Part shown: positions 2,789-49,974 of the stretch, piece after piece
Layout of the letters: each line of letters starts with the position of its first letter
Position numbering within the stretch: the stretch's first letter is position 1
Source: Bacteroidota bacterium
GTDB lineage: Bacteria; Bacteroidota; Bacteroidia; Bacteroidales; CAIXTV01
Reading direction: 5' to 3'
Assembly (NCBI GenBank): GCA_037144095.1
Contig: JBAWXL010000002.1
Coordinates: 1-50,056 of the forward strand
DNA length: 50,056 nt
Program-made: the position numbers and the translations under genes
The notes under the pieces: generated by a model
The model's database searches: none
What the model was told of the DNA's origin: nothing
Seen by the model: only the letters and a program-made list of their open reading frames with translations

Positions 2789-4219
2789 ATGCTTTTTAAC
2801 TCGTTTCATTTTCTGTTTTTTTTCATTGTAGTCACGACGCTTTATTTCGTGCTGCCTTTTAGCAAACGTTGGATTCTTCTTTTAGCAAGCAGTTGCTATT
2901 TTTATATGGCATTCATTCCGGTGTATATCCTGATTTTGGGATTCACCATCGTGATAGATTATTTTGCCGGAATATACATTGAAAATGCCGAGGGTGCCCG
3001 GCGAAAGCTTTTCCTCACATTTAGTTTAATTGCAAACATTGGGGTTCTGGCCGTTTTTAAATATTATAATTTCCTGAACCTTAACTTCACCTTTCTGCTA
3101 CATGGTTTTGGACTGTCAAATCCCGTCCCGTTTTTAGCAATTCTGTTGCCCATAGGGCTTTCCTTTCATACGTTTCAGGCAATGAGCTATACGATTGAAG
3201 TATATCGGGGTCGTCAGAAAGCCGAGCGGCATTTTGGCATCTATTCATTATATGTGATGTTCTATCCCCAACTTGTTGCCGGACCCATCGAACGACCTCA
3301 AAATCTCCTTCACCAATTCAGAGAAAAATACTATTTCGAATATTTCCGGGTAGTCGAAGGACTCAAACTGATGCTGTGGGGGTTCTTCAAAAAAATCGTG
3401 ATAGCCGATCGCCTCGCCATATATGTAAATGCGGTGTATAACAATCCCGATCAGCATACCGGAATGACCCTTTTATTAGCCACCATATTTTTCGCTTTTC
3501 AAATATATTGCGATTTTTCGGGCTATTCAGACATCGCCATTGGGGCAGCAAAAGTTATGGGGTTTAAATTAATGACCAATTTTAATCGTCCTTATTTTGC
3601 CCGAAACATTTCTGAATTCTGGAAACGCTGGCACATTTCATTGTCCACCTGGTTTAAAGACTATTTATATATTTCGCTTGGGGGCAACCGCACTTCAATT
3701 CCGCGTTGGTATTTAAACCTGTTTTTAGTTTTCCTCATCAGTGGTCTATGGCATGGAGCCAATTGGACCTATATAATATGGGGTGGTCTGAATGGTTTTT
3801 ATCTGGTTTTCGCCATCATTTCTCAAGGCTACAGAAATAAGTTTAATAAACTAACAGGTATAGATAAACTTCCCAAATTAAACCACTTGTTTCAGGTGCT
3901 AATTACATTTTTCTTATCCTGTTTTGCCTGGATATTTTTCAGAGCCAACAATGTAACTGATGCTTTCACTATCATTAAGAAAATCTCAAAGCTTGATGGG
4001 GCGGTCTTTATCGACAACCCATCTATCATGATTTATTCCTTTTTAGGTATCCTGATTTTATTCTTGGTTGAGTTTAAAAAAGAGTTTTACAAAGGTGATT
4101 TTTCATTTATGGAGAATAAAAGCTGGGTGGTGCGCAATTTTTCATACGCAGTTTTATTGATTCTAATATTGCTAATTGGCGTTTTCGATGGCGGACAATT
4201 TATTTATTTTCAATTTTAA
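2789..4219 (+). CDS. MBOAT family O-acyltransferase (AlgI/DltB/PatA-like)
   Basis: Polytopic membrane protein. Motifs: FWKRWHISLSTWFKDYLYISLGGNR and the conserved His in LISGLWHGANW. Confidence 0.88.
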   Translation: MLFNSFHFLFFFIVVTTLYFVLPFSKRWILLLASSCYFYMAFIPVYILILGFTIVIDYFAGIYIENAEGARRKLFLTFSLIANIGVLAVFKYYNFLNLNFTFLLHGFGLSNPVPFLAILLPIGLSFHTFQAMSYTIEVYRGRQKAERHFGIYSLYVMFYPQLVAGPIERPQNLLHQFREKYYFEYFRVVEGLKLMLWGFFKKIVIADRLAIYVNAVYNNPDQHTGMTLLLATIFFAFQIYCDFSGYSDIAIGAAKVMGFKLMTNFNRPYFARNISEFWKRWHISLSTWFKDYLYISLGGNRTSIPRWYLNLFLVFLISGLWHGANWTYIIWGGLNGFYLVFAIISQGYRNKFNKLTGIDKLPKLNHLFQVLITFFLSCFAWIFFRANNVTDAFTIIKKISKLDGAVFIDNPSIMIYSFLGILILFLVEFKKEFYKGDFSFMENKSWVVRNFSYAVLLILILLIGVFDGGQFIYFQF

Positions 4220-4227
4220 GATGAATC

Positions 4228-5181
4228 ATGATTAAGAAATTGATTTATAAAATAAAAAAGAATCCATTTCAATACTTTCTATTGAAGTTGCTTGTTTTCA
4301 TTGCAATTGTATTTGTCATTGACTTTGCGGTAGGAAATGTTCTCCGCTACTTATACTTCAAACAAGAAAGTGGCTTACTCTATCGGACTACCTATTCAAT
4401 TGAAAAAACCACTGCCGATGTATTGGTCTTTGGTTCATCAAGGGCCAATCATCATTATCATCCTGAAGTATTAGAAAAACGATTACATCTTTCTTACTAT
4501 AACGTTGGAAGAGATGGTAATTTTATGTTCTATCATTATGCTGTTCTAAAAGGAATTTTGAAAAGATATTCACCTAAACTCATCATTCTTGATTTTGTGA
4601 AAGGTGAATTTAAACCAAGTCAGGAAAGCTACGACCGGCTATCATCATTGCTGCCTTACTATCATAGCCATCCCGAAATGCGATCCATCATCGAACTTAA
4701 AAGCAAATATGAATGGTTGAAATTAGTCTCATCCATCTACCCCTACAATTCTTCAATTTTCACCATAGCTGCCGGTAATGCTGAGTTTAATAAAACAAGA
4801 AAAGGAGACATTCAGGGTTATGTGCCACTCAGCAAAACGTGGAATGGGCCCCTTCAAATTGATAGCAGTTCGACAAATAAAGAAATTGATAGTAATAAAG
4901 TAAACATGTATGCTTCGTTCATTAAGGATTGCATTTCATCGAAAGTAAAACTAATTGTTGTCTGTTCACCTTATTATCACAAATCCCTTCACCCCGATTA
5001 TTCCCTTACATTAGGACAAGAAATTGCAAGAAAATATAATGTTCCCTTCTTCGATTATTCATCGGATTCGATGTTTGTAAATAACGTCAAATATTTTGCT
5101 GATATTAATCATTTGAACGATGGAGGCGCAATGGTTTTTTCAAATATACTTGTTGATAAGATAAGTAAAACGAATGATTGA
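4228..5181 (+). CDS. SGNH-like partner of the MBOAT (AlgJ/AlgX/DltD/PatB-like acyl transfer protein)
   Basis: N-terminal TM anchor. VLVFGSSRANHHY resembles SGNH block I and the C-terminal DINHLNDGG resembles the block V DxxH. Lies immediately after the MBOAT gene. Confidence 0.55.
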   Translation: MIKKLIYKIKKNPFQYFLLKLLVFIAIVFVIDFAVGNVLRYLYFKQESGLLYRTTYSIEKTTADVLVFGSSRANHHYHPEVLEKRLHLSYYNVGRDGNFMFYHYAVLKGILKRYSPKLIILDFVKGEFKPSQESYDRLSSLLPYYHSHPEMRSIIELKSKYEWLKLVSSIYPYNSSIFTIAAGNAEFNKTRKGDIQGYVPLSKTWNGPLQIDSSSTNKEIDSNKVNMYASFIKDCISSKVKLIVVCSPYYHKSLHPDYSLTLGQEIARKYNVPFFDYSSDSMFVNNVKYFADINHLNDGGAMVFSNILVDKISKTND

Positions 5182-6179: not shown

Positions 6180-7208
6180 ATGGATAAACAAAAAATATTA
6201 GTCACAGGAGGAACAGGTTATATTGGTTCTCATACAGTTGTCGAACTGCAGCAAGCAGGTTTCGAAGTTTTCATTATTGATAATTTGTCCAATTCAAATG
6301 TTGCGGTAGTAGATCAAATTGAGAAAATCACAGGAATTCGTCCTTATTTTAAAAAGCTTGATTTATTAGACAAGAAAGATCTCTTTCGATTTTTTAATGA
6401 AAATAAACCATTTGCCGGAATAATACATTTCGCAGCATCAAAAGCTGTGGGCGAATCAGTTGAAAAGCCTTTATTTTATTACGAAAATAATTTGTTGAGC
6501 TTAATTAATTTGCTTAATGCAATGATAGAATTCAACACTTCGAATTTAGTATTTTCTTCTTCTTGCACTGTTTATGGCCAACCAGAAATGCTTCCCGTAA
6601 CTGAAGATTCACCATTATTGCCGGCAACATCTCCATATGGAAACACCAAAAAGATTGCAGAAGATATTATTAAGGATACCGTAAATGCTTATAATGGTTT
6701 AAATTCAATAGCATTGCGTTATTTTAATCCGGTAGGAGCTCATGAATCTGCTTTAATTGGAGAATTGCCAAATGGTATTCCAAATAATTTAATGCCATTT
6801 ATAACTCAAACAGCTATCGGAAAACGTGAATTACTTCGTGTTTTTGGAAATGATTATGATACACCCGACGGAACAGCCGTACGTGATTACATTCATGTGG
6901 TTGACCTTGCAAAAGCTCATATTGCTGCATTAAATCGTCTTTTAAATAATAAATCAAACAGTAAGATTGAATTTTATAATATTGGTGCAGGCAAAGGATA
7001 TTCTGTGTTAGAAGTAGTAAATGCATTCGAAAGCTCAACAGGTGTCACATTAAATTGGAAGTTTTTCCCAAGACGAAAAGGTGACATTGAAAAAATTTGG
7101 GCTGATAGTTCTTTTTCTAACAATATCCTTCAATGGAAAGCAAGTAAAAGCTTAGAAGAAATGGTTCAAAGTGCATGGAAATGGGAAAATACATTGAAAA
7201 ATGAATAA
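6180..7208 (+). CDS. galE: UDP-glucose 4-epimerase
   Basis: ILVTGGTGYIGSHTVVEL, DNLSNS, HFAASKAVGES, SPYGNTKKIAE, RYFNPVGAH, GIPNNLMPFI, GTAVRDYIHVVDLA. Full-length GalE pattern. Confidence 0.9.
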   Translation: MDKQKILVTGGTGYIGSHTVVELQQAGFEVFIIDNLSNSNVAVVDQIEKITGIRPYFKKLDLLDKKDLFRFFNENKPFAGIIHFAASKAVGESVEKPLFYYENNLLSLINLLNAMIEFNTSNLVFSSSCTVYGQPEMLPVTEDSPLLPATSPYGNTKKIAEDIIKDTVNAYNGLNSIALRYFNPVGAHESALIGELPNGIPNNLMPFITQTAIGKRELLRVFGNDYDTPDGTAVRDYIHVVDLAKAHIAALNRLLNNKSNSKIEFYNIGAGKGYSVLEVVNAFESSTGVTLNWKFFPRRKGDIEKIWADSSFSNNILQWKASKSLEEMVQSAWKWENTLKNE

Positions 7209-8184
7209 AAGAGTTTTAGTTACCGGGGCCGACGGTTTCATCGGTTCACATTTAACTGAATTATTACTTGAAAAAGGATATAAGGTAAGAGCTTTATCAT
7301 ATTATAATTCATTTAACTATTGGGGTTGGTTGGAAGATATTTCTACAAATCCAAATTTAGAAGTCGTAACTGGAGACATACGAGACCCGCATTATGTGAA
7401 ACATATAATGAAGGATATTGACATTGTCTTTCATCTTGCTGCATTAATTGCAATTCCCTATTCATATCACGCTCCGGATAGTTATGTCGATACAAATATC
7501 AGAGGCACCTTAAATGTTTGCCAGTCAGCAAAAGAGTTAGGGGGCATCAGGGTGATTAATACTTCAACATCTGAAGTTTATGGAACAGCACAATATGTTC
7601 CCATCGACGAAAAACATCCAAAGCAAGCACAATCGCCATATTCTGCTTCTAAAATTGGAGCAGATGCGATGGCAATGAGTTTTTTTAATGCCTTTAACCT
7701 GCCGGTTACTATTGCAAGACCCTTTAATACGTATGGTCCTCGCCAATCAGCAAGAGCAATTATTCCAACCATTATTTCTCAAATTGCCAGTGGGATGAAA
7801 GAAATTAATTTGGGCGATTTAACACCTACACGTGATTTTAACTTTGTAAAAGATACTTGCAACGGATTTTTAGCTGTAGCTGAATGCAATGAAACAATTG
7901 GAAAAGAAATCAATATTTGTTCTAATTTTGAAATATCAATGGCTGATACCCTCGCTTTGATAAAAGAAATTATGCAAAGCGAGGTCAAATTAATAACTGA
8001 TGAACAACGTATTCGTCCTGAAAACTCTGAAGTGTTCAGGTTGTGGGGCGATAATACACTTTTGAAAAGCTTAACCGCATTCAAACCCGAATACGATATC
8101 AAAAAAGGATTAGAAATCACATGTAATTGGTTTCTGAAAGAAGAAAATTTGAAAAAGTATAAAGCTGGAATTTATAATTTATAA
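7201..8184 (+). CDS. NAD-dependent sugar 4,6-dehydratase/epimerase (LegB-like SDR)
   Basis: VLVTGADGFIGSHLTE, YNSFNYWGWLE, SPYSASKIGAD (YxxxK). Overlaps the galE stop by 8 nt. Confidence 0.7.
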   Translation: MNKRVLVTGADGFIGSHLTELLLEKGYKVRALSYYNSFNYWGWLEDISTNPNLEVVTGDIRDPHYVKHIMKDIDIVFHLAALIAIPYSYHAPDSYVDTNIRGTLNVCQSAKELGGIRVINTSTSEVYGTAQYVPIDEKHPKQAQSPYSASKIGADAMAMSFFNAFNLPVTIARPFNTYGPRQSARAIIPTIISQIASGMKEINLGDLTPTRDFNFVKDTCNGFLAVAECNETIGKEINICSNFEISMADTLALIKEIMQSEVKLITDEQRIRPENSEVFRLWGDNTLLKSLTAFKPEYDIKKGLEITCNWFLKEENLKKYKAGIYNL

Positions 8185-8270
8185 GAGGTCAAGATTAAGG
8201 ATGAGGTTAAGAATAACTTCGATTTTCTGACTTCTTCTCTGTCTTAACCTTTATCGCAACCTTAGCCTCA
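8185..8270. repeat. Left boundary of the hexamer-repeat cassette: GAGGTYAAG-type inverted copies followed by direct CTTAACCT/AACCTTAGCCTC copies
   Basis: 8185..8211 (gaggtcaagattaaggatgaggttaag) matches the reverse complement of 8649..8675 at 22/27 positions (hand alignment). It starts 1 nt after the stop codon at 8184. Confidence 0.75.
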
Positions 8271-8281
8271 ATTTTAATTCA

Positions 8282-8647
8282 ATGTTCAAAAGTTTTTCGG
8301 AAATGCCAATTTGGCAAACAGCACATGAGTTATCAATTGACGTATTTAAAAGGACAACGCATTTGCCTCGTTCTGAAGATTATGGATTAACATCGCAAAT
8401 CCGAAGATCAGCTAATAGTGTATCTGCAAATGTAGCTGAAGCTTTTGGAAGAAGCTCAAGTAAAGATAAAAGTAATTTTTACATTTATGCAAGAGGTTCT
8501 GTTACTGAAACTCAGAACCATTTAATTTATGGCTTAGATGTAGGATATTTTGAAAAACAGGGAGTAGAACTACTCTTAAACAAATACAATGTTTTGATTT
8601 ATGATTTAAATAAGGTTCTAAAAGCCCTATCACAACCCCAACCTTAA
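8282..8647 (+). CDS. Four-helix-bundle protein (23S rRNA intervening-sequence protein / Avd family, PF05635-like)
   Basis: 121 aa. Motifs LTSQIRRSANSVSANVAEAFGR and YIYARGSVTETQNHL are typical of the family. The C-terminal SQPQP runs into the hexamer repeat. Confidence 0.8.
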   Translation: MFKSFSEMPIWQTAHELSIDVFKRTTHLPRSEDYGLTSQIRRSANSVSANVAEAFGRSSSKDKSNFYIYARGSVTETQNHLIYGLDVGYFEKQGVELLLNKYNVLIYDLNKVLKALSQPQP

Positions 8648-8675
8648 CCTCAACCTCAACCTTAACCTCAACCTC
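8633..8675. repeat. Right boundary of the cassette: 7 tandem CAACCT/TAACCT hexamers
   Basis: caaccc caacct taacct caacct caacct taacct caacct c. Ends 4 nt before ATG 8680. Confidence 0.85.
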
Positions 8676-8679
8676 TTGC

Positions 8680-9924
8680 ATGACCAAGTTTCAACCCATC
8701 GTCAACTTTATTCGCAAGACCTTTAACTCTCCGAAGGATTTTATTCCTCTTCATGCCCCCGTGTTCTGTGGAAATGAAAAAAAGTATCTGGAGGAATGTA
8801 TTGACACAACTTTCGTTTCCAGCGTAGGTAAATTCGTCGATCGTTTCGAAGCCATGGTTGCTGAATACACAGGTGCAACAAAAGCTGTTGTTTGCGTTAA
8901 TGGCACGAATGCCCTTCATTTAGCCATGCTACTCTTAGGAGTCAAACAGGATGATGAAGTAATCACCCAGCCATTGACTTTTATTGCAACTTGCAATGCC
9001 ATAAGTTATATTGGAGCCCATCCTGTGTTTGTTGACGTTGATTTAGACACATTAGGTATGTCGCCAAAAGCTTTAAGAAAGTGGCTTGCCGAAAACGTAG
9101 AATTTAAGAATCAGGCTGAGGATAAGGTTAATAATTTCCAATCTCAACCACAACCTCAACCTCAATCTCAACCTCAGCCTCAACCTCAGCCTCAACCTCA
9201 ATCTCAACCTTACAATAAAACCACAGGCAGGCGAATTAAAGCCTGCATTCCAATGCATACTTTCGGGCATCCCTGTCGCATTGATGAGATTGTTGAAATT
9301 TGCAAAGAATATCATATCGAATTAATTGAAGATGCAGCCGAAAGCCTGGGAAGTTTTTATAAAGAAAAGCACACCGGTACATTCGCAAAAATAGCCGCCC
9401 TGAGTTTTAATGGAAACAAAACAATTACAACCGGAGGCGGGGGAATGCTTTTGTTTCAAGACGAAGACTTAGCAAAATCAGCAAAACATCTAACCACACA
9501 AGCCAAAGTTCCCCATCCATGGAATTTCGTTCATGACCAAATTGGCTATAATTATCGCATGCCCAACATAAATGCTGCTTTAGGCTGTGCTCAAATGGAA
9601 CAACTCCCTCAATTTCTCTCAGCCAAACGACAATTAGCTCATCAATACGAACAATTCTTCTCAACCTTAAACTCAACCTCAACCTTTTTCAAAGAACCCC
9701 AAAACGCAAAGTCAAACTATTGGTTAAATGTAATTATTCTAAAGGACAGAGATGAACGTGATGAATTTTTAAAATTCGCCAACGACAATGGAGTAATGAC
9801 TCGTCCTGCCTGGCAATTGATGAATAAATTGCCGATGTTTGTAGATTGTCAATGTGGCGAACTCCCTAATTCAGAATGGTTGGAAGATAGAATTGTAAAC
9901 ATCCCCAGCAGCGCGATAATATGA
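8680..9924 (+). CDS. DegT/DnrJ/EryC1/StrS-family sugar aminotransferase (LegC-like) carrying an in-frame repeat insertion
   Basis: IPLHAPVFCGNEKKYLEECIDTTFVSSVG, LSFNGNKTITTGGGGMLL (PLP Lys region), GYNYRMPNINAALG. The 24-aa QS/QP tract is atypical for the family. Confidence 0.85.
   Translation: MTKFQPIVNFIRKTFNSPKDFIPLHAPVFCGNEKKYLEECIDTTFVSSVGKFVDRFEAMVAEYTGATKAVVCVNGTNALHLAMLLLGVKQDDEVITQPLTFIATCNAISYIGAHPVFVDVDLDTLGMSPKALRKWLAENVEFKNQAEDKVNNFQSQPQPQPQSQPQPQPQPQPQSQPYNKTTGRRIKACIPMHTFGHPCRIDEIVEICKEYHIELIEDAAESLGSFYKEKHTGTFAKIAALSFNGNKTITTGGGGMLLFQDEDLAKSAKHLTTQAKVPHPWNFVHDQIGYNYRMPNINAALGCAQMEQLPQFLSAKRQLAHQYEQFFSTLNSTSTFFKEPQNAKSNYWLNVIILKDRDERDEFLKFANDNGVMTRPAWQLMNKLPMFVDCQCGELPNSEWLEDRIVNIPSSAII
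9139..9210 (+). repeat. 12 tandem hexamers (CAACCT and CAATCT/CAGCCT/CAACCA variants) inside the aminotransferase CDS
   Basis: Read directly. Encodes QSQPQPQPQSQPQPQPQPQPQSQP; the antisense reads (RL)n. An inverted arm GAGGATAAGGTTAA lies at 9118..9131. Confidence 0.95.
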
Positions 9925-10985
9925 TAATTGGAGGAGAACATTTTTTCTCACCTGGCTTTTTGTTCAGAAAATCAAAAGCTTATGTTGACAATTTAATCAA
10001 AGAATTTCAACCAAATTACAAAGTGAATTTTACTTTTGGTGGCTTCTACTCCATTTTAGCCATCATCGACGAAATTAAACCAAAAATGGATGAAGCCTCA
10101 GTCGTTTTATTGCCTTCCTATTTGTGTCCCAGCATATTGTTGCCTTTTAAAATCAGAGGCATTTCCTATAAGTTCTACAAAGTAGATGATGATTTGTTGA
10201 TCGATACCGATTATTTGCTGTCAATTATTGATGAAAACGTAAAAGCAGTATTTTTTGTCGATTATTTTGGGGCGTCCCAATTAGATAGATTACAAGCTGT
10301 ATTAGAAACACTTAGATTAAAAAACATTGCCATCATCCAGGATATAGTTCAATGTCTCGAAATCAAAAATGAATTTTTATTTGGCGATTATATTTTCAAT
10401 AGTTTCCGCAAATTTTTCCCATTCGAAGGCAGCATTATTTTATCTAAAAAAGATATGAATATTAATTATGCTGAAAAAAGAAATATCTTTATAAAACCTA
10501 AGCGGATTGGGCAATTGCTGAGGTATTTTCATATTAAATACAATCTGTTTTCGAGCAAACTTTTCTTAAAATACTTGCATAAAGCAGAAGAAAACTATCA
10601 TCAGGATGGCATTTTCAAAATGCCAAAGTGCAACATAAAGCAGCTTAACAAATATGATGTTCAGCAAATGTCAGCGAACCAAAAGCATTATAGCAATCTG
10701 CTGAAAAATCTCTTCGAGAGCCTACAACCTCGTTTATTACAACACAATAATTTCGTGCCCTTGGGCTTTGTCATTAAGTTGAATAAGCGCGATTTCGTCA
10801 GAATGGAATTGTTCGCTCAAAACATTTTTCCACCCATTCATTGGCTATTAAATGAAGAATTTGACAAGCCTCTTTGCGAAAAAAGCATCCAACTTTCAAA
10901 ATCAATTTTGACCATTCCGCTAATAAATCTGACCAAAGAAAAATACAACTATCTATCCGAAAATCTAATTAAAATATTAAAATGA
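9921..10985 (+). CDS. Divergent DegT-like PLP-fold protein (function unknown)
   Basis: LLPSYLCPSILLPF, FFVDYFGAS...IIQDIVQCL and FNSFRKFFPFEGSIILS loosely parallel the DegT blocks (compare FSFHPRKAITTGEGGMV in ORF 36632). ATGA overlap with the upstream gene. Confidence 0.4.
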   Translation: MIIGGEHFFSPGFLFRKSKAYVDNLIKEFQPNYKVNFTFGGFYSILAIIDEIKPKMDEASVVLLPSYLCPSILLPFKIRGISYKFYKVDDDLLIDTDYLLSIIDENVKAVFFVDYFGASQLDRLQAVLETLRLKNIAIIQDIVQCLEIKNEFLFGDYIFNSFRKFFPFEGSIILSKKDMNINYAEKRNIFIKPKRIGQLLRYFHIKYNLFSSKLFLKYLHKAEENYHQDGIFKMPKCNIKQLNKYDVQQMSANQKHYSNLLKNLFESLQPRLLQHNNFVPLGFVIKLNKRDFVRMELFAQNIFPPIHWLLNEEFDKPLCEKSIQLSKSILTIPLINLTKEKYNYLSENLIKILK

Positions 10986-12651: not shown

Positions 12652-12861
12652 AGCTCCCACATCTCGGAAAAACCCTCCCGCATCCCGGAAAAACCCTTCC
12701 GCATTTCGGAAAAATCCTTCCGAATTTTGGAGAAACCCTTCCGCATTTCGGAAAAACTCATCCGCATTTCGGAAAAACCCTTCAACATGCTGGAAAAACC
12801 TTTCCGCATTTCGGAAAAACTCATCCGCATGCTGGAGAGACCCTTCCGCATGCACTATTTA
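12652..12861. repeat. Array A: 10 tandem 21-bp units, consensus CCCTTCCGCATTTCGGAAAAA
   Basis: Units parsed by hand in exact 21-nt register. Each has a TTCCG-N5-CGGAA dyad and a terminal A5 tract. Intergenic (12560/13151). Confidence 0.95.
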
Positions 12862-23015: not shown

Positions 23016-23156
23016 CATATTAAAAAACTTGAATTTAATTCCTCTAATTTTTTTTAATTCATTTTTATTGATATAAAATGAATATTATTAAAGGATATTC
23101 CCTGAAATAAATTCATTTTATCCGGTTTCGAATAAAAAAAATCCAATTTTATTCTC

Positions 23157-23382
23157 ACAACAGCGAGGTTCATTGTTAAAACAAGAGGGCTTATTGTTAC
23201 GACAGCGAGGTTCATTGTTAAAACAAGAAGGTTTATTGTTACGACAGCGAGGTTCATTGTTAAAACAGGAAGGTTTATTGTTACGACAGCGAGGTTCGTT
23301 GTTAAAACAGGAGGGTTTATTGTTACGACAGCGAGGTTTATTGTTAAAAAAACAAGGATGATTTTCACGATAGCGAGCATAG
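23157..23382. repeat. Array B: about 5.4 tandem 42-bp units (ACGACAGCGAGGTTCATTGTT + AAAACAAGAAGGTTTATTGTT)
   Basis: Parsed by hand. The two 21-nt halves of a unit match at 15/21 positions, so the base period is 21. Intergenic (23015/23586). Confidence 0.95.
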
Positions 23383-34974: not shown

Positions 34975-35142
34975 GGTAGAAACGACATACTCTTACAAGA
35001 ATCTGTCGGTTCTTCTGATAGAAACGACAGGATGGTGCAAAAATCTGTCGTTTCTTCTGGTATAAACGACAGGATGGCGTAAAAATCTGTCAGTTCTTTT
35101 GGTACAAACGACAGGATGGTGCACCATCCTGTCGTTTGTACC
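34975..35142. repeat. Array C: 4 tandem 42-bp units, each a hairpin (AAACGACAG..CTGTCGTTT); the last unit is a perfect 42-nt palindrome
   Basis: Units at 34975, 35017, 35059 and 35101. I checked 35101..35142 (ggtacaaacgacaggatggtgcaccatcctgtcgtttgtacc) base by base and it is fully self-complementary. Confidence 0.95.
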
Positions 35143-35342
35143 AGTATTTTTAGCCTCTTTTTTCATCAAAAAACAGCTTTTTAATATGCAAATAATCATT
35201 TAAAACACATATTATCATTGCTTTAGCATTAAATGATCCCACCACCACAACAATGCCCTTATTGAATGTCTGTTCAATTCCAATAAAAGACACTCGGATT
35301 TACCGGTTTGGTAGTAGTTTTTTTTACACTTCAAACAAAAAC

Positions 35343-44050: not shown

Positions 44051-44302
44051 TGGAATTTGCATTCGAAATTTCCCGATGCACATGCGCATTTTCAGAATGC
44101 ACATTCGGAATTTCGGAATGCGCATTCAGAACTCCGGGATGCACATCCTGAATTTCGGGATGTACATCCCGAAAGTTGGAATTTACGTTCGGAATGTTGG
44201 GATGCATATTCAAACGTTCCGCATGTACGTCCAAGATTTTGGGATGTACATCTGAAACTTTCGAATGTGCGTTTTAACATTTGGCATGAAAGTCTGAAAA
44301 CA
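44051..44302. repeat. Array D: 12 tandem 21-bp units, consensus yGGRATGYRCATYCnGAAwTT
   Basis: Parsed by hand in exact register. Unit 6 contains the perfect 16-bp palindrome CGGGATGTACATCCCG (44156..44171) and unit 4 contains GAATGCGCATTC. Lies between convergent genes. Confidence 0.95.
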
Positions 44303-49640: not shown

Positions 49641-49960
49641 GTTTAGCTGTTTAGATAACTAGACTTTTAGCTGTTTAGACATTTAGACTTTTAGGAAGAA
49701 GCTCCAAACCTACCAGGTTTCCAAAACCTGTTAGGTTTTTTTAAAAAGGTTGAAGGCTATTAGGCTGTAGACTGAAGTAAGCTAATAGACTTTTAGCTGT
49801 TTAGTCATTTAGGCTTTTAGGAAGAAGCCCCAAACCTACCAGGTTTCCAAAACCTGTTAGGTTTTTTTAAAAGACTGAAGGCTATTAGGCTGTAGACTGA
49901 AGGAGGCTAATAGACTTTTAGCTGTTTAGACTTTTAGGCTTTTAGGAAGAAGCCACAAAC
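49641..49960. repeat. About 2.4 tandem copies of a 125-126-bp unit containing TTTAG-rich short repeats and two AAACCT..AGGTTT hairpins
   Basis: Copies start at 49660, 49786 and 49911. Hairpins in copy 1: AAACCTaccAGGTTT (49706..49720) and AAAACCTgttAGGTTTT plus T-run (49723..49742). Confidence 0.9.
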
Positions 49961-49974
49961 ACTACACTCTTTGG

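Follow-up and report, generated by a model that had tools for sequence, protein, structure and literature searches.

A hairpin-bounded cassette with a four-helix-bundle gene at the legB–legC junction of a Bacteroidota polysaccharide operon: a probable mobile relative of rRNA intervening sequences

The DNA analyzed here is a stretch of 50,056 nucleotides from a Bacteroidota bacterium (contig JBAWXL010000002.1, positions 1 to 50,056 of the forward strand; hereafter, the window), in which a gene for a four-helix-bundle protein lies between legB and legC, enclosed by two complementary arrays of short tandem repeats. We conclude that the segment 8185–8679 is probably a mobile cassette of the type known from rRNA intervening sequences (IVSs), residing here in an mRNA operon, with its two arms serving as a stem that RNase III would cut. 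Cassettes of about 0.45–0.6 kb that consist of a purine-rich 5′ arm, a PF05635 gene and a complementary 3′ arm form a large family. The sequence of the arms changes from one cassette lineage to another while complementarity within each cassette is kept, and at orthologous junctions the cassette is present, absent or reduced to a bare hairpin. The gene wrapped in this manner is apparently a widespread kind of mobile element that has not been described so far; in the open full-text literature we found no description of repeat arms around four-helix-bundle genes outside rRNA, subscription literature lying outside the search.

The preliminary description of this locus, made from the letters alone, had proposed that the segment interrupts an otherwise tight operon junction, and comparison with syntenic loci agreed with this proposal. 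Removal of 8185–8675 from the window leaves TAA-ttgc-ATG, and in a relative that has no cassette (L091; LegB 80% and LegC 68% identical to those of the window) the two genes are joined through a 3-nt junction, legB-TAA-gtc-ATG-legC. The cassette is therefore an insertion relative to the canonical legB|legC junction. Two further loci, L010 and L023 (LegB 73%, LegC 63–64% identical), do have a cassette at this junction; since the closer relative is empty and the more distant ones are filled, presence of the cassette does not track how similar the flanking genes are. Of the LegB orthologues examined, the three closest (86–89% identity) were unusable as empty sites, as no legC follows legB in them, and in loci whose LegB orthologues are 86% identical several other junctions hold cassettes, a frameshifted copy and bare hairpins. 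Just one public contig with the exact LegB of the window was found (L081, a Logan contig of 5516 nt); it stops just inside the 3′ repeat of the cassette, suggesting that such arrays break short-read assemblies.

The boundaries given previously (legB stop codon TAA at 8182–8184, an open reading frame (ORF) of 121 aa at 8282–8647 and the legC ATG at 8680) were correct, with legB, the four-helix-bundle ORF and legC all on the same strand. Likewise, the reported inverted-repeat match of 8185–8211 to the reverse complement of 8649–8675 was recovered at 22/27 positions, and a shift of the alignment by one hexamer raised it to 23/27. A repeat finder delimited 34-nt arms (8183–8216 and 8644–8677) with 79% complementarity, and the hexamer pattern occurred 26 times in the window vs. 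0.94 times expected. The ungapped inverted-repeat score of the cassette flanks was 15, while the maximum of 1000 shuffles was 13 and the 40 other ORFs of the window scored 13 or less, all but one of them 9 or less. The last codons of the four-helix-bundle ORF (SQPQP*) are read out of the 3′ arm, the end of which falls 1–4 nt short of the legC ATG.

As RNA, the arms are predicted to form a duplex of 25 bp (8182–8211 with 8649–8678) with an energy of −31.0 kcal/mol, long enough for a nuclease specific for double-stranded RNA, and the legB stop codon would be pulled into the base of this stem. Shuffled arms gave −12.5 ± 3.1 kcal/mol, and none of the 1000 shuffles reached the observed value. In silico folding, which had been recommended as a check, returned a minimum free energy structure that closes the ends of the cassette, with a mean pairing probability of 0.70 between the left and right arms in the ensemble of a 531-nt transcript. 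The layout in the window, in which arrays are arranged as G-C-ORF-C, was also observed in L014, L025 and L034, where G and C denote arrays of the (RAGGTT)n and (AACCTY)n types, respectively.

The protein encoded by the cassette matched PF05635 with an E value of 1.2e-30 (106.2 bits, cut-off 33.8) and TIGR02436 with 103 bits (cut-off 24). Its relatives in the PDB are 2gsc, the pentameric Xcc0516, and 2rld, a Bacteroides protein: a search with the single sequence retrieved 2gsc (E 1.1e-12), and a profile retrieved both 2gsc (2.3e-35) and 2rld (1.7e-19). The R-x3-S-x3-N-x2-E motif described for the four-helix-bundle family (PMC3936711) is present as RRSANSVSANVAE, and S46, N50 and E53 are invariant or near-invariant in the four-helix-bundle alignment A3. 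Of the earlier assignment to an 'IVS protein/Avd family', the first part is borne out by the PF05635 and TIGR02436 matches; the second is not, as Avd was recovered neither by sequence nor by profile search against the PDB, and it rests on statements in CDD and in the structural literature (PMC10053308). With 14,272 clusters at 50% identity (E ≤ 1e-3), the family is a large one; the GTDB representative set, which does not include the source genome, has a best homologue that is 66% identical, and an exact look-up of the protein retrieved no record. Between close pairs of cassette ORFs, the ratio of non-synonymous to synonymous substitution rates (dN/dS) was 0.05–0.12, and the cassette ORFs are under strong purifying selection. 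No second four-helix-bundle homologue was found in the window, and a PADLOC defence-family search with the protein returned no family at E ≤ 0.01.

Other copies of such genes had been predicted to be bracketed by GAGGTTAAG/CTTAACCTC-type repeats, and this holds widely. We sampled 80 loci of homologues (52–66% identical) from species-representative genomes, mostly of Bacteroidota with some other phyla; many are metagenome-assembled genomes, with which isolates and finished plasmids agree. The flanks of the genes repeatedly had (RAGGTT)n upstream and (AACCTY)n downstream. Under strict array definitions, 34 cassettes showed a G-array followed by a C-array vs. a single one in the reverse order, and 154 of the 215 hexamer arrays in these 545 kb of loci were located no more than 400 nt from a four-helix-bundle gene. 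Over 84 homologous genes, the ungapped inverted-repeat score had a median of 13.5, compared with 7 over 142 control ORFs of these loci, with 64% of the former above the 95th percentile of the controls and 26% above their maximum. In the 37 cassettes with both arms, the median arm-to-arm size was 492 nt (491–495 in the window), the 5′ arm started a median of 4 nt past the upstream stop codon and the 3′ arm ended a median of 16 nt ahead of the next ATG; among the stems tested, the median arm length was 33 nt. The upstream neighbour was co-oriented with the four-helix-bundle gene in 76/77 cases and the downstream neighbour in 60/75.

Repeat units other than (RAGGTT)n were found in paralogues within the same loci and at related polysaccharide-locus junctions, again as paired arms: (CAAAGTT)n/(AACTTTG)n, (AAAGATAAAAG)/(CTTTTATCTTT), (GTGATCAGTAAT)/(ATTACTGATCAC) and (GTTGAGAAG...)/(CTTCTCAAC...). 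Independent distant homologues on IMG/VR contigs, located with the narrower alignment A4 since the sequences in the more diverse A3 diverge too far for such a search, had bracketing arrays in 10–11 of 13 loci, with units that include GGGAGTA, GTAGGGA, AGAAGGC, GGAAGAA, GGGGCTT and GGTACGC. On finished cyanobacterial plasmids the units included CAGGAGT, ACAGGTG and GAGGAGATAAG: a Nostoc punctiforme plasmid has a cassette with arms (CAGGAGT)n/(ACTCCTG)n, Picosynechococcus PCC 7003 has one between cmr2 and cmr3, and Anabaena sp. 90 has one with arms (ACAGGTG)n/(CACCTGT)n between cas6 and cas4. When arms were scored against each other in a 20 × 20 matrix, own arms reached 16–17.5 and arms of other classes 7.

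Some of these loci have peculiarities of their own. In Anabaena sp. 90 plasmid pANA02 (L110, 1908–2030), the 3′ arm, (CACCTGT)4, lies inside the annotated 5′ end of cas4, so that cas4 has either a translated arm or a mis-annotated start. The protein WP_010994075.1 is encoded on both the gamma (L105) and alpha (L106) plasmids of Nostoc sp. PCC 7120, where each copy has kept its 3′ arm (CTTCTGCCCTCTGCC...) and a 5′ arm was found in neither; in L105, the four-helix-bundle gene is preceded by that of an ISL3-family transposase, which ends 78 nt upstream. In L053, at about 3620–4520, repeats with a period of approximately 50 nt lie on both sides, the unit being composed of hexamers and a small GC hairpin (ctgcctgaggcagg), so that these arrays are of greater complexity than the simple arms.

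The idea that the segment is mobile gained support from two sides, namely an arm-to-arm unit in otherwise dissimilar loci and orthologous junctions with either a full cassette or a bare hairpin. L006 and L012, from different Bacteroidales species, have 469 nt in common (3951–4419 in both) at 91.9% identity, bounded by the first G-type and the last C-type unit; BLASTN of these 8.3-kb loci detected no similarity outside this unit, and the pairs L006/L060 and L006/L056 behave in the same way. Since it is found in otherwise dissimilar surroundings, the stretch from arm to arm moves as a unit. In L012 and L060, the downstream gene is 98% identical, but upstream of the cassette the two loci have unrelated genes (28% over 150 aa), and sequence similarity thus breaks at the cassette. 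With regard to orthologous sites, the geneA|wzm junction is occupied by a full cassette in L011 but by a G-loop-C hairpin with no gene in the related loci L017 and L079, and the wzm|wzt junction has a hexamer-arm cassette in L017 and a divergent four-helix-bundle gene with heptamer arms in L011. The latter gene (L011, 5285–5828), which tblastn missed, is flanked by (TAATTAT)n upstream and a long (AACCATT)n downstream. Nine gene-less hairpins were counted under strict criteria, two of them, in L025, being near-identical and 2 kb apart. Repeat copy number also differs between relatives.

Surface-polysaccharide genes are enriched among the neighbours of the 80 homologues. Upstream, these were ABC-2 permease (Wzm) genes in nine cases, NusG/UpxY-like genes in six (of 77 loci), Polysacc_synt_2 in five and Poly_export in four; downstream, DegT was found in 13 cases and the ABC ATPase (Wzt) in nine. 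Other settings were also observed: in four loci of the sulfate-assimilation type, a PAPS-reductase-family gene precedes the cassette and an APS-kinase gene follows it, and cassettes occur in cas/cmr operons, for which four-helix-bundle genes have been mentioned without comment on the repeats (PMC3936711). In Flavobacterium columnare, a gene table places a four-helix-bundle gene between gmk and nadD (PMC5524665). As the same type of cassette is found in all of these settings, the gene is no pathway component, and a role in the leg pathway, considered as a candidate, was ruled out.

In the reading that we favour, the cassette would be transcribed by read-through from the host operon, in sense orientation between two cistrons; read-through is the most likely course because no promoter of its own is evident. 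In the polycistronic RNA, the arms are modelled to form a double-stranded stem of at least 25 bp, which RNase III may cut as it does in rRNA IVSs, releasing the cassette RNA. By the same analogy, the legB and legC messages would be separated with neither cistron damaged, and such cleavage would turn operon junctions into landing sites that are tolerated. Tolerance may be greatest in long polysaccharide operons, in keeping with the NusG/UpxY-like upstream neighbour in 6/77 loci.

Two observations concern possible promoters. A sigma-70-type match (TTGAAA-18-TATAAT, 11/12) is located at 8149–8178, at the end of legB and just before the cassette; such a match is uninformative for Bacteroidota and probably meaningless there. 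In L004, L007, L016 and L022, where G-type arrays lie on both sides of the gene, the ATG is set apart from the upstream array by a conserved AT-rich spacer of about 55 nt, whose TTTG...TAnnTTT-like motifs may represent a Bacteroidota-type promoter belonging to the cassette itself.

Several results weigh against this reading or call for caution. The z-score of the fold of the whole region was just −2.1, and the 5′ arm has a weaker, competing local partner at 8243–8271 (−21.6 to −24.1 kcal/mol) that is transcribed first. A test for pairing at the level of the sense-strand RNA found no excess of G·U over A·C mismatches in 76 stems (151 G·U vs. 181 A·C), which leaves room for a role of the arms at the DNA level or for their recognition by the four-helix-bundle protein; the window stem has no G·U and five A·C, so that the antisense strand would pair slightly better. 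Further, if RNase III cut every such stem, the hairpin that lies in frame within legC would also be a target. Approximately one third of the homologues have no clear bracketing repeat or have arrays in the same orientation on both sides, the latter being the case in L004, L007, L016, L022 and L056. Duplex energy over long flanks separated cassettes poorly from ordinary genes: with 130-nt or 150-nt flanks the medians differed, but ordinary ORFs of the window reached similar values, and this measure was replaced by the ungapped inverted-repeat score. Finally, the relatives were picked by protein similarity and one repeat class is dominant among them, so the counts do not represent independent events.

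Some of these points would be accommodated by a transposon acting at the DNA level, the arms of which would be terminal inverted repeats served by a transposase in trans or by the four-helix-bundle protein itself; bare hairpins would then resemble MITEs (miniature transposable elements with inverted repeats), and the RNA stem would be a by-product. In line with this, the mobile unit ends exactly at the arms, gene-less hairpins have been duplicated within L025, a G·U bias on the sense strand was not seen and the four-helix-bundle protein is strongly conserved; the repeat unit also goes with the protein subfamily, which would be expected of a protein that recognises the arms of its own cassette. 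However, no direct target-site duplication is visible at 8184/8185 and 8679/8680, no transposase was found in the cassettes inspected, and the arms, being tandem arrays whose length and register vary, do not look like the defined ends of a transposon. Moreover, a DNA transposon would require neither the polarity of the cassettes (the 5′ arm was >60% purine in 69/80 and <40% in three) nor the co-orientation with the upstream gene (76/77), and the one characterised setting of the family, the rRNA IVS, is processed as RNA. We therefore regard a transposon of this kind as unlikely, albeit worth keeping in mind.

Translational self-control would assign a different function to the same stem, in which a 5′ arm resembling a Shine–Dalgarno sequence (GAGG, AGGAG, GGAG) drives translation of the four-helix-bundle gene within the polycistronic mRNA and is masked by the 3′ arm, itself similar to an anti-Shine–Dalgarno sequence, with no nuclease site involved. 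The distribution of Shine–Dalgarno core 4-mers, present in 55/80 5′ arms vs. 3/80 3′ arms, and the median distance of 33.5 nt between the end of the 5′ arm and the ATG speak in its favour. Yet Bacteroidota make little use of Shine–Dalgarno pairing, the units CAAAGTT, AAAGATAAAAG, GTGATCAGTAAT and ACAGGTG have no such core, arms of 30–100 nt are much longer than this role needs, and gene-less hairpins persist with nothing to translate. Even though the Coxiella IVS has an AG-rich putative Shine–Dalgarno sequence beside its repeats (PMC4990558), we consider this explanation improbable.

Less probable still is a domesticated host element, in which the cassette or its stem would be kept for a benefit to the polysaccharide operon, such as the legB:legC ratio, mRNA stability or recombination of modules. 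The enrichment for surface-polysaccharide neighbours, the break of similarity at the cassette between L012 and L060 and the presence of cassettes at many different junctions of related loci could be read in this way. Nevertheless, the same cassettes are found in cas/cmr, PAPS-reductase/APS-kinase, gmk|nadD and rRNA settings, the L091 operon works with its 3-nt junction, and the enrichment may reflect tolerance instead of benefit in a sample that is biased to relatives of this protein. Slippage-prone simple-sequence DNA, whose tandem repeats would pile up in AT-rich gaps in a functionless inverted arrangement, is very improbable: although the window has other intergenic arrays with 21- and 42-nt periods and relatives differ in their repeat copy number, the complementarity, polarity and placement of the arms are seen again with unrelated units, across unrelated phyla and where GC content differs, arms and ORF travel together as one unit, and control ORFs of the same loci have no such repeats.

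Beyond the cassette in the window, one may speculate that PF05635 cassettes constitute a distinct and very widespread class of mobile elements, with a four-helix-bundle gene in the loop of a tandem-repeat-armed hairpin, that spreads into transcribed DNA at cistron junctions, in rRNA helices and in protein loops and has as its products the 23S IVSs, many orphan hexamer or heptamer arrays between genes of Bacteroidota and Cyanobacteria, and QP/KV insertions read in frame in enzymes. We put this forward as a tentative generalisation, which is more doubtful than the interpretation of the legB|legC cassette. The spread of such a class might run via an RNA or hairpin intermediate, with the protein taking part.

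The window is a polysaccharide biosynthesis locus with a GC content of 36% and its genes on a single strand, and the host of the cassette is a legionaminic-acid/polysaccharide operon, with legB as the upstream and legC as the downstream cistron. An Rfam scan of 7000–10500 gave no rRNA and no other match, and a terminator scan found nothing relevant to the cassette. The features of the junction and of legC are compiled in Table 1.

Table 1. Coordinates of the cassette, its flanking genes and related repeats in the window
Feature	Coordinates	Strand	Evidence and remarks
legB, NAD-dependent 4,6-dehydratase	7201..8184	+	TIGR04180, 511.7 bits (cut-off 475); Pfam Epimerase/GDP_Man_Dehyd
5′ arm, purine-rich degenerate hexamer array (GAGGTC AAGATT AAGGAT GAGGTT AAG), (RAGGTT)n type	8185..8211	+	Pairs with 8649–8678
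Incomplete C-type array inside the 5′ leader (CTTAACCTTTATCGCAACCTTAGCCTCAA)	8243..8271	+	Direct-repeat family D1; alternative hairpin partner of the 5′ arm
Four-helix-bundle protein gene ('23S rRNA intervening sequence protein'), 121 aa	8282..8647	+	PF05635 / TIGR02436
3′ arm, (CAACCT)7 tandem array, (AACCTY)n type, complementary to the 5′ arm	8633..8678	+	Tandem Repeats Finder, period 6, 7.2 copies; hexamer array 8633–8675
legC, LegC-family aminotransferase	8680..9924	+	TIGR04181, 550.4 bits (cut-off 420); Pfam DegT
Gene-less hairpin, in frame in legC: G-type stub (aGGCTGAGGATAAGGTT) then (CAACCT)12	9113..9211	+	Predicted hairpin, −19.8 kcal/mol
Three to four C-type hexamers in a short run within legC, encoding STLNSTST	9663..9686	+	2-aa length difference from L091

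The gene-less hairpin within legC adds approximately 30 aa to the protein, in which (CAACCT)12 is read as QSQPQPQPQSQPQP... (QSQPQPQP...), and the match of the window LegC to TIGR04181 falls into two stretches with an insertion between them. The insertion at this site is missing in L091, L010 and L023 and has other lengths in L050, L018 and L046. In L046, LegC includes a full in-frame hairpin, ...KVKVKVKAEVKQSQPQPLPQP, with G-type units (read as KV repeats) followed by C-type units (read as QP repeats). The short hexamer run at 9663–9686 may reflect chance or be the remnant of an element.

Elsewhere in the window, intergenic tandem arrays with 21- and 42-nt periods are located at 12660–12853, 23148–23377, 34996–35123 and 44060–44211. 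These repeats are of a type unlike that of the hexamer arms, and the four gaps yielded no four-helix-bundle gene. The array at 34996–35123 includes a perfect 44-nt palindrome (35100–35143). Near the end of the window, at 49660–49965, a 125-nt unit is repeated 2.4 times with 93% identity and is surrounded by smaller repeats.

The origin of rRNA IVSs and the role of their conserved ORF have been a standing question since the early 1990s. Our results suggest that the rRNA IVS represents one special instance of a far larger group of four-helix-bundle cassettes bounded by hairpins, which live mainly between the cistrons of ordinary operons and leave bare hairpins behind; the old question thereby becomes testable in culturable Bacteroidota and in model cyanobacteria. 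The cassettes also offer an explanation for assembly breaks, for intergenic hexamer or heptamer arrays that had been left unexplained and for QP/KV insertions in enzymes such as LegC, and they raise the possibility that transcripts of long polysaccharide and CRISPR-Cas operons are segmented post-transcriptionally.

With regard to known systems, Cyanobacteria, Beggiatoaceae and a few Bacteroidetes have heptamer tandem arrays, i.e., short tandemly repeated repetitive sequences (STRRs) and TAACTGA repeats, beside start or stop codons, and the horizontal distribution of these arrays is unexplained (PMC4679880). The four-helix-bundle cassettes of cyanobacteria likewise have heptamer arms, whereas the STRR and TAACTGA repeats were described as direct repeats, unlinked to four-helix-bundle genes or to an inverted partner (PMC4679880). 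Avd of diversity-generating retroelements (DGRs) has a related pentameric four-helix-bundle fold and is grouped with IVS proteins in CDD cd16375 (PMC10053308). Unlike in DGRs, the annotated neighbours of the cassette are sugar-nucleotide and polysaccharide enzymes with no reverse transcriptase among them (not every ORF of the window being annotated), and no template/variable repeat pair of the DGR type was seen around it. To our knowledge, Avd genes have not been described as bracketed by inverted tandem arrays.

In phage T7 early mRNA and in E. coli operons (rpsO-pnp), RNase III cuts a hairpin between cistrons and thereby yields separate mRNAs with defined ends, which is the mechanism proposed here; those hairpins are, however, short and not mobile, with neither a gene in the loop nor tandem-repeat arrays. 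The scattering of gene-less hairpins at junctions, some of them in frame in a gene (legC 9113–9211; L046), resembles MITEs, Rickettsia palindromic elements, which are known for in-frame insertion, and repetitive extragenic palindromic sequences that form hairpins (REPINs). In contrast to these elements, the arms of the cassettes are arrays of 6–7-nt units and not unique sequences, and the full-length cassette encodes a four-helix-bundle protein and not a transposase of a known family.

The parallel with rRNA IVSs that the preliminary description had drawn is real, and it extends to the repeats themselves, as the 5′ arm of the 23S IVS in Coxiella contains tandem heptamers too: GACAGAT is present two to three times depending on the strain, and RNase III cuts at the first repeat (PMC4990558). 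In that study, a 'remnant of transposition' and a 'mobile element whose ORF aids mobility' were given as untested ideas (PMC4990558). S23p-type 23S rRNA IVSs (Leptospira, Coxiella, Brucella, Xanthomonas) have in common with the cassette the protein family, an ORF in sense to the host transcript and inside inverted repeats that form a long stem (in the window, 25 bp and −31 kcal/mol, as predicted), a size of about 0.4–0.5 kb and a sporadic distribution suggesting mobility (PMC4990558). They differ in the location that defines them, since the window cassette lies between legB and legC and not in a 23S rRNA helix, and RNase III excision, demonstrated for the IVSs, would apply to the cassette by analogy. 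Moreover, the Coxiella ORF is decaying and probably untranslated, whereas the ORFs of the cassettes are under strong purifying selection.

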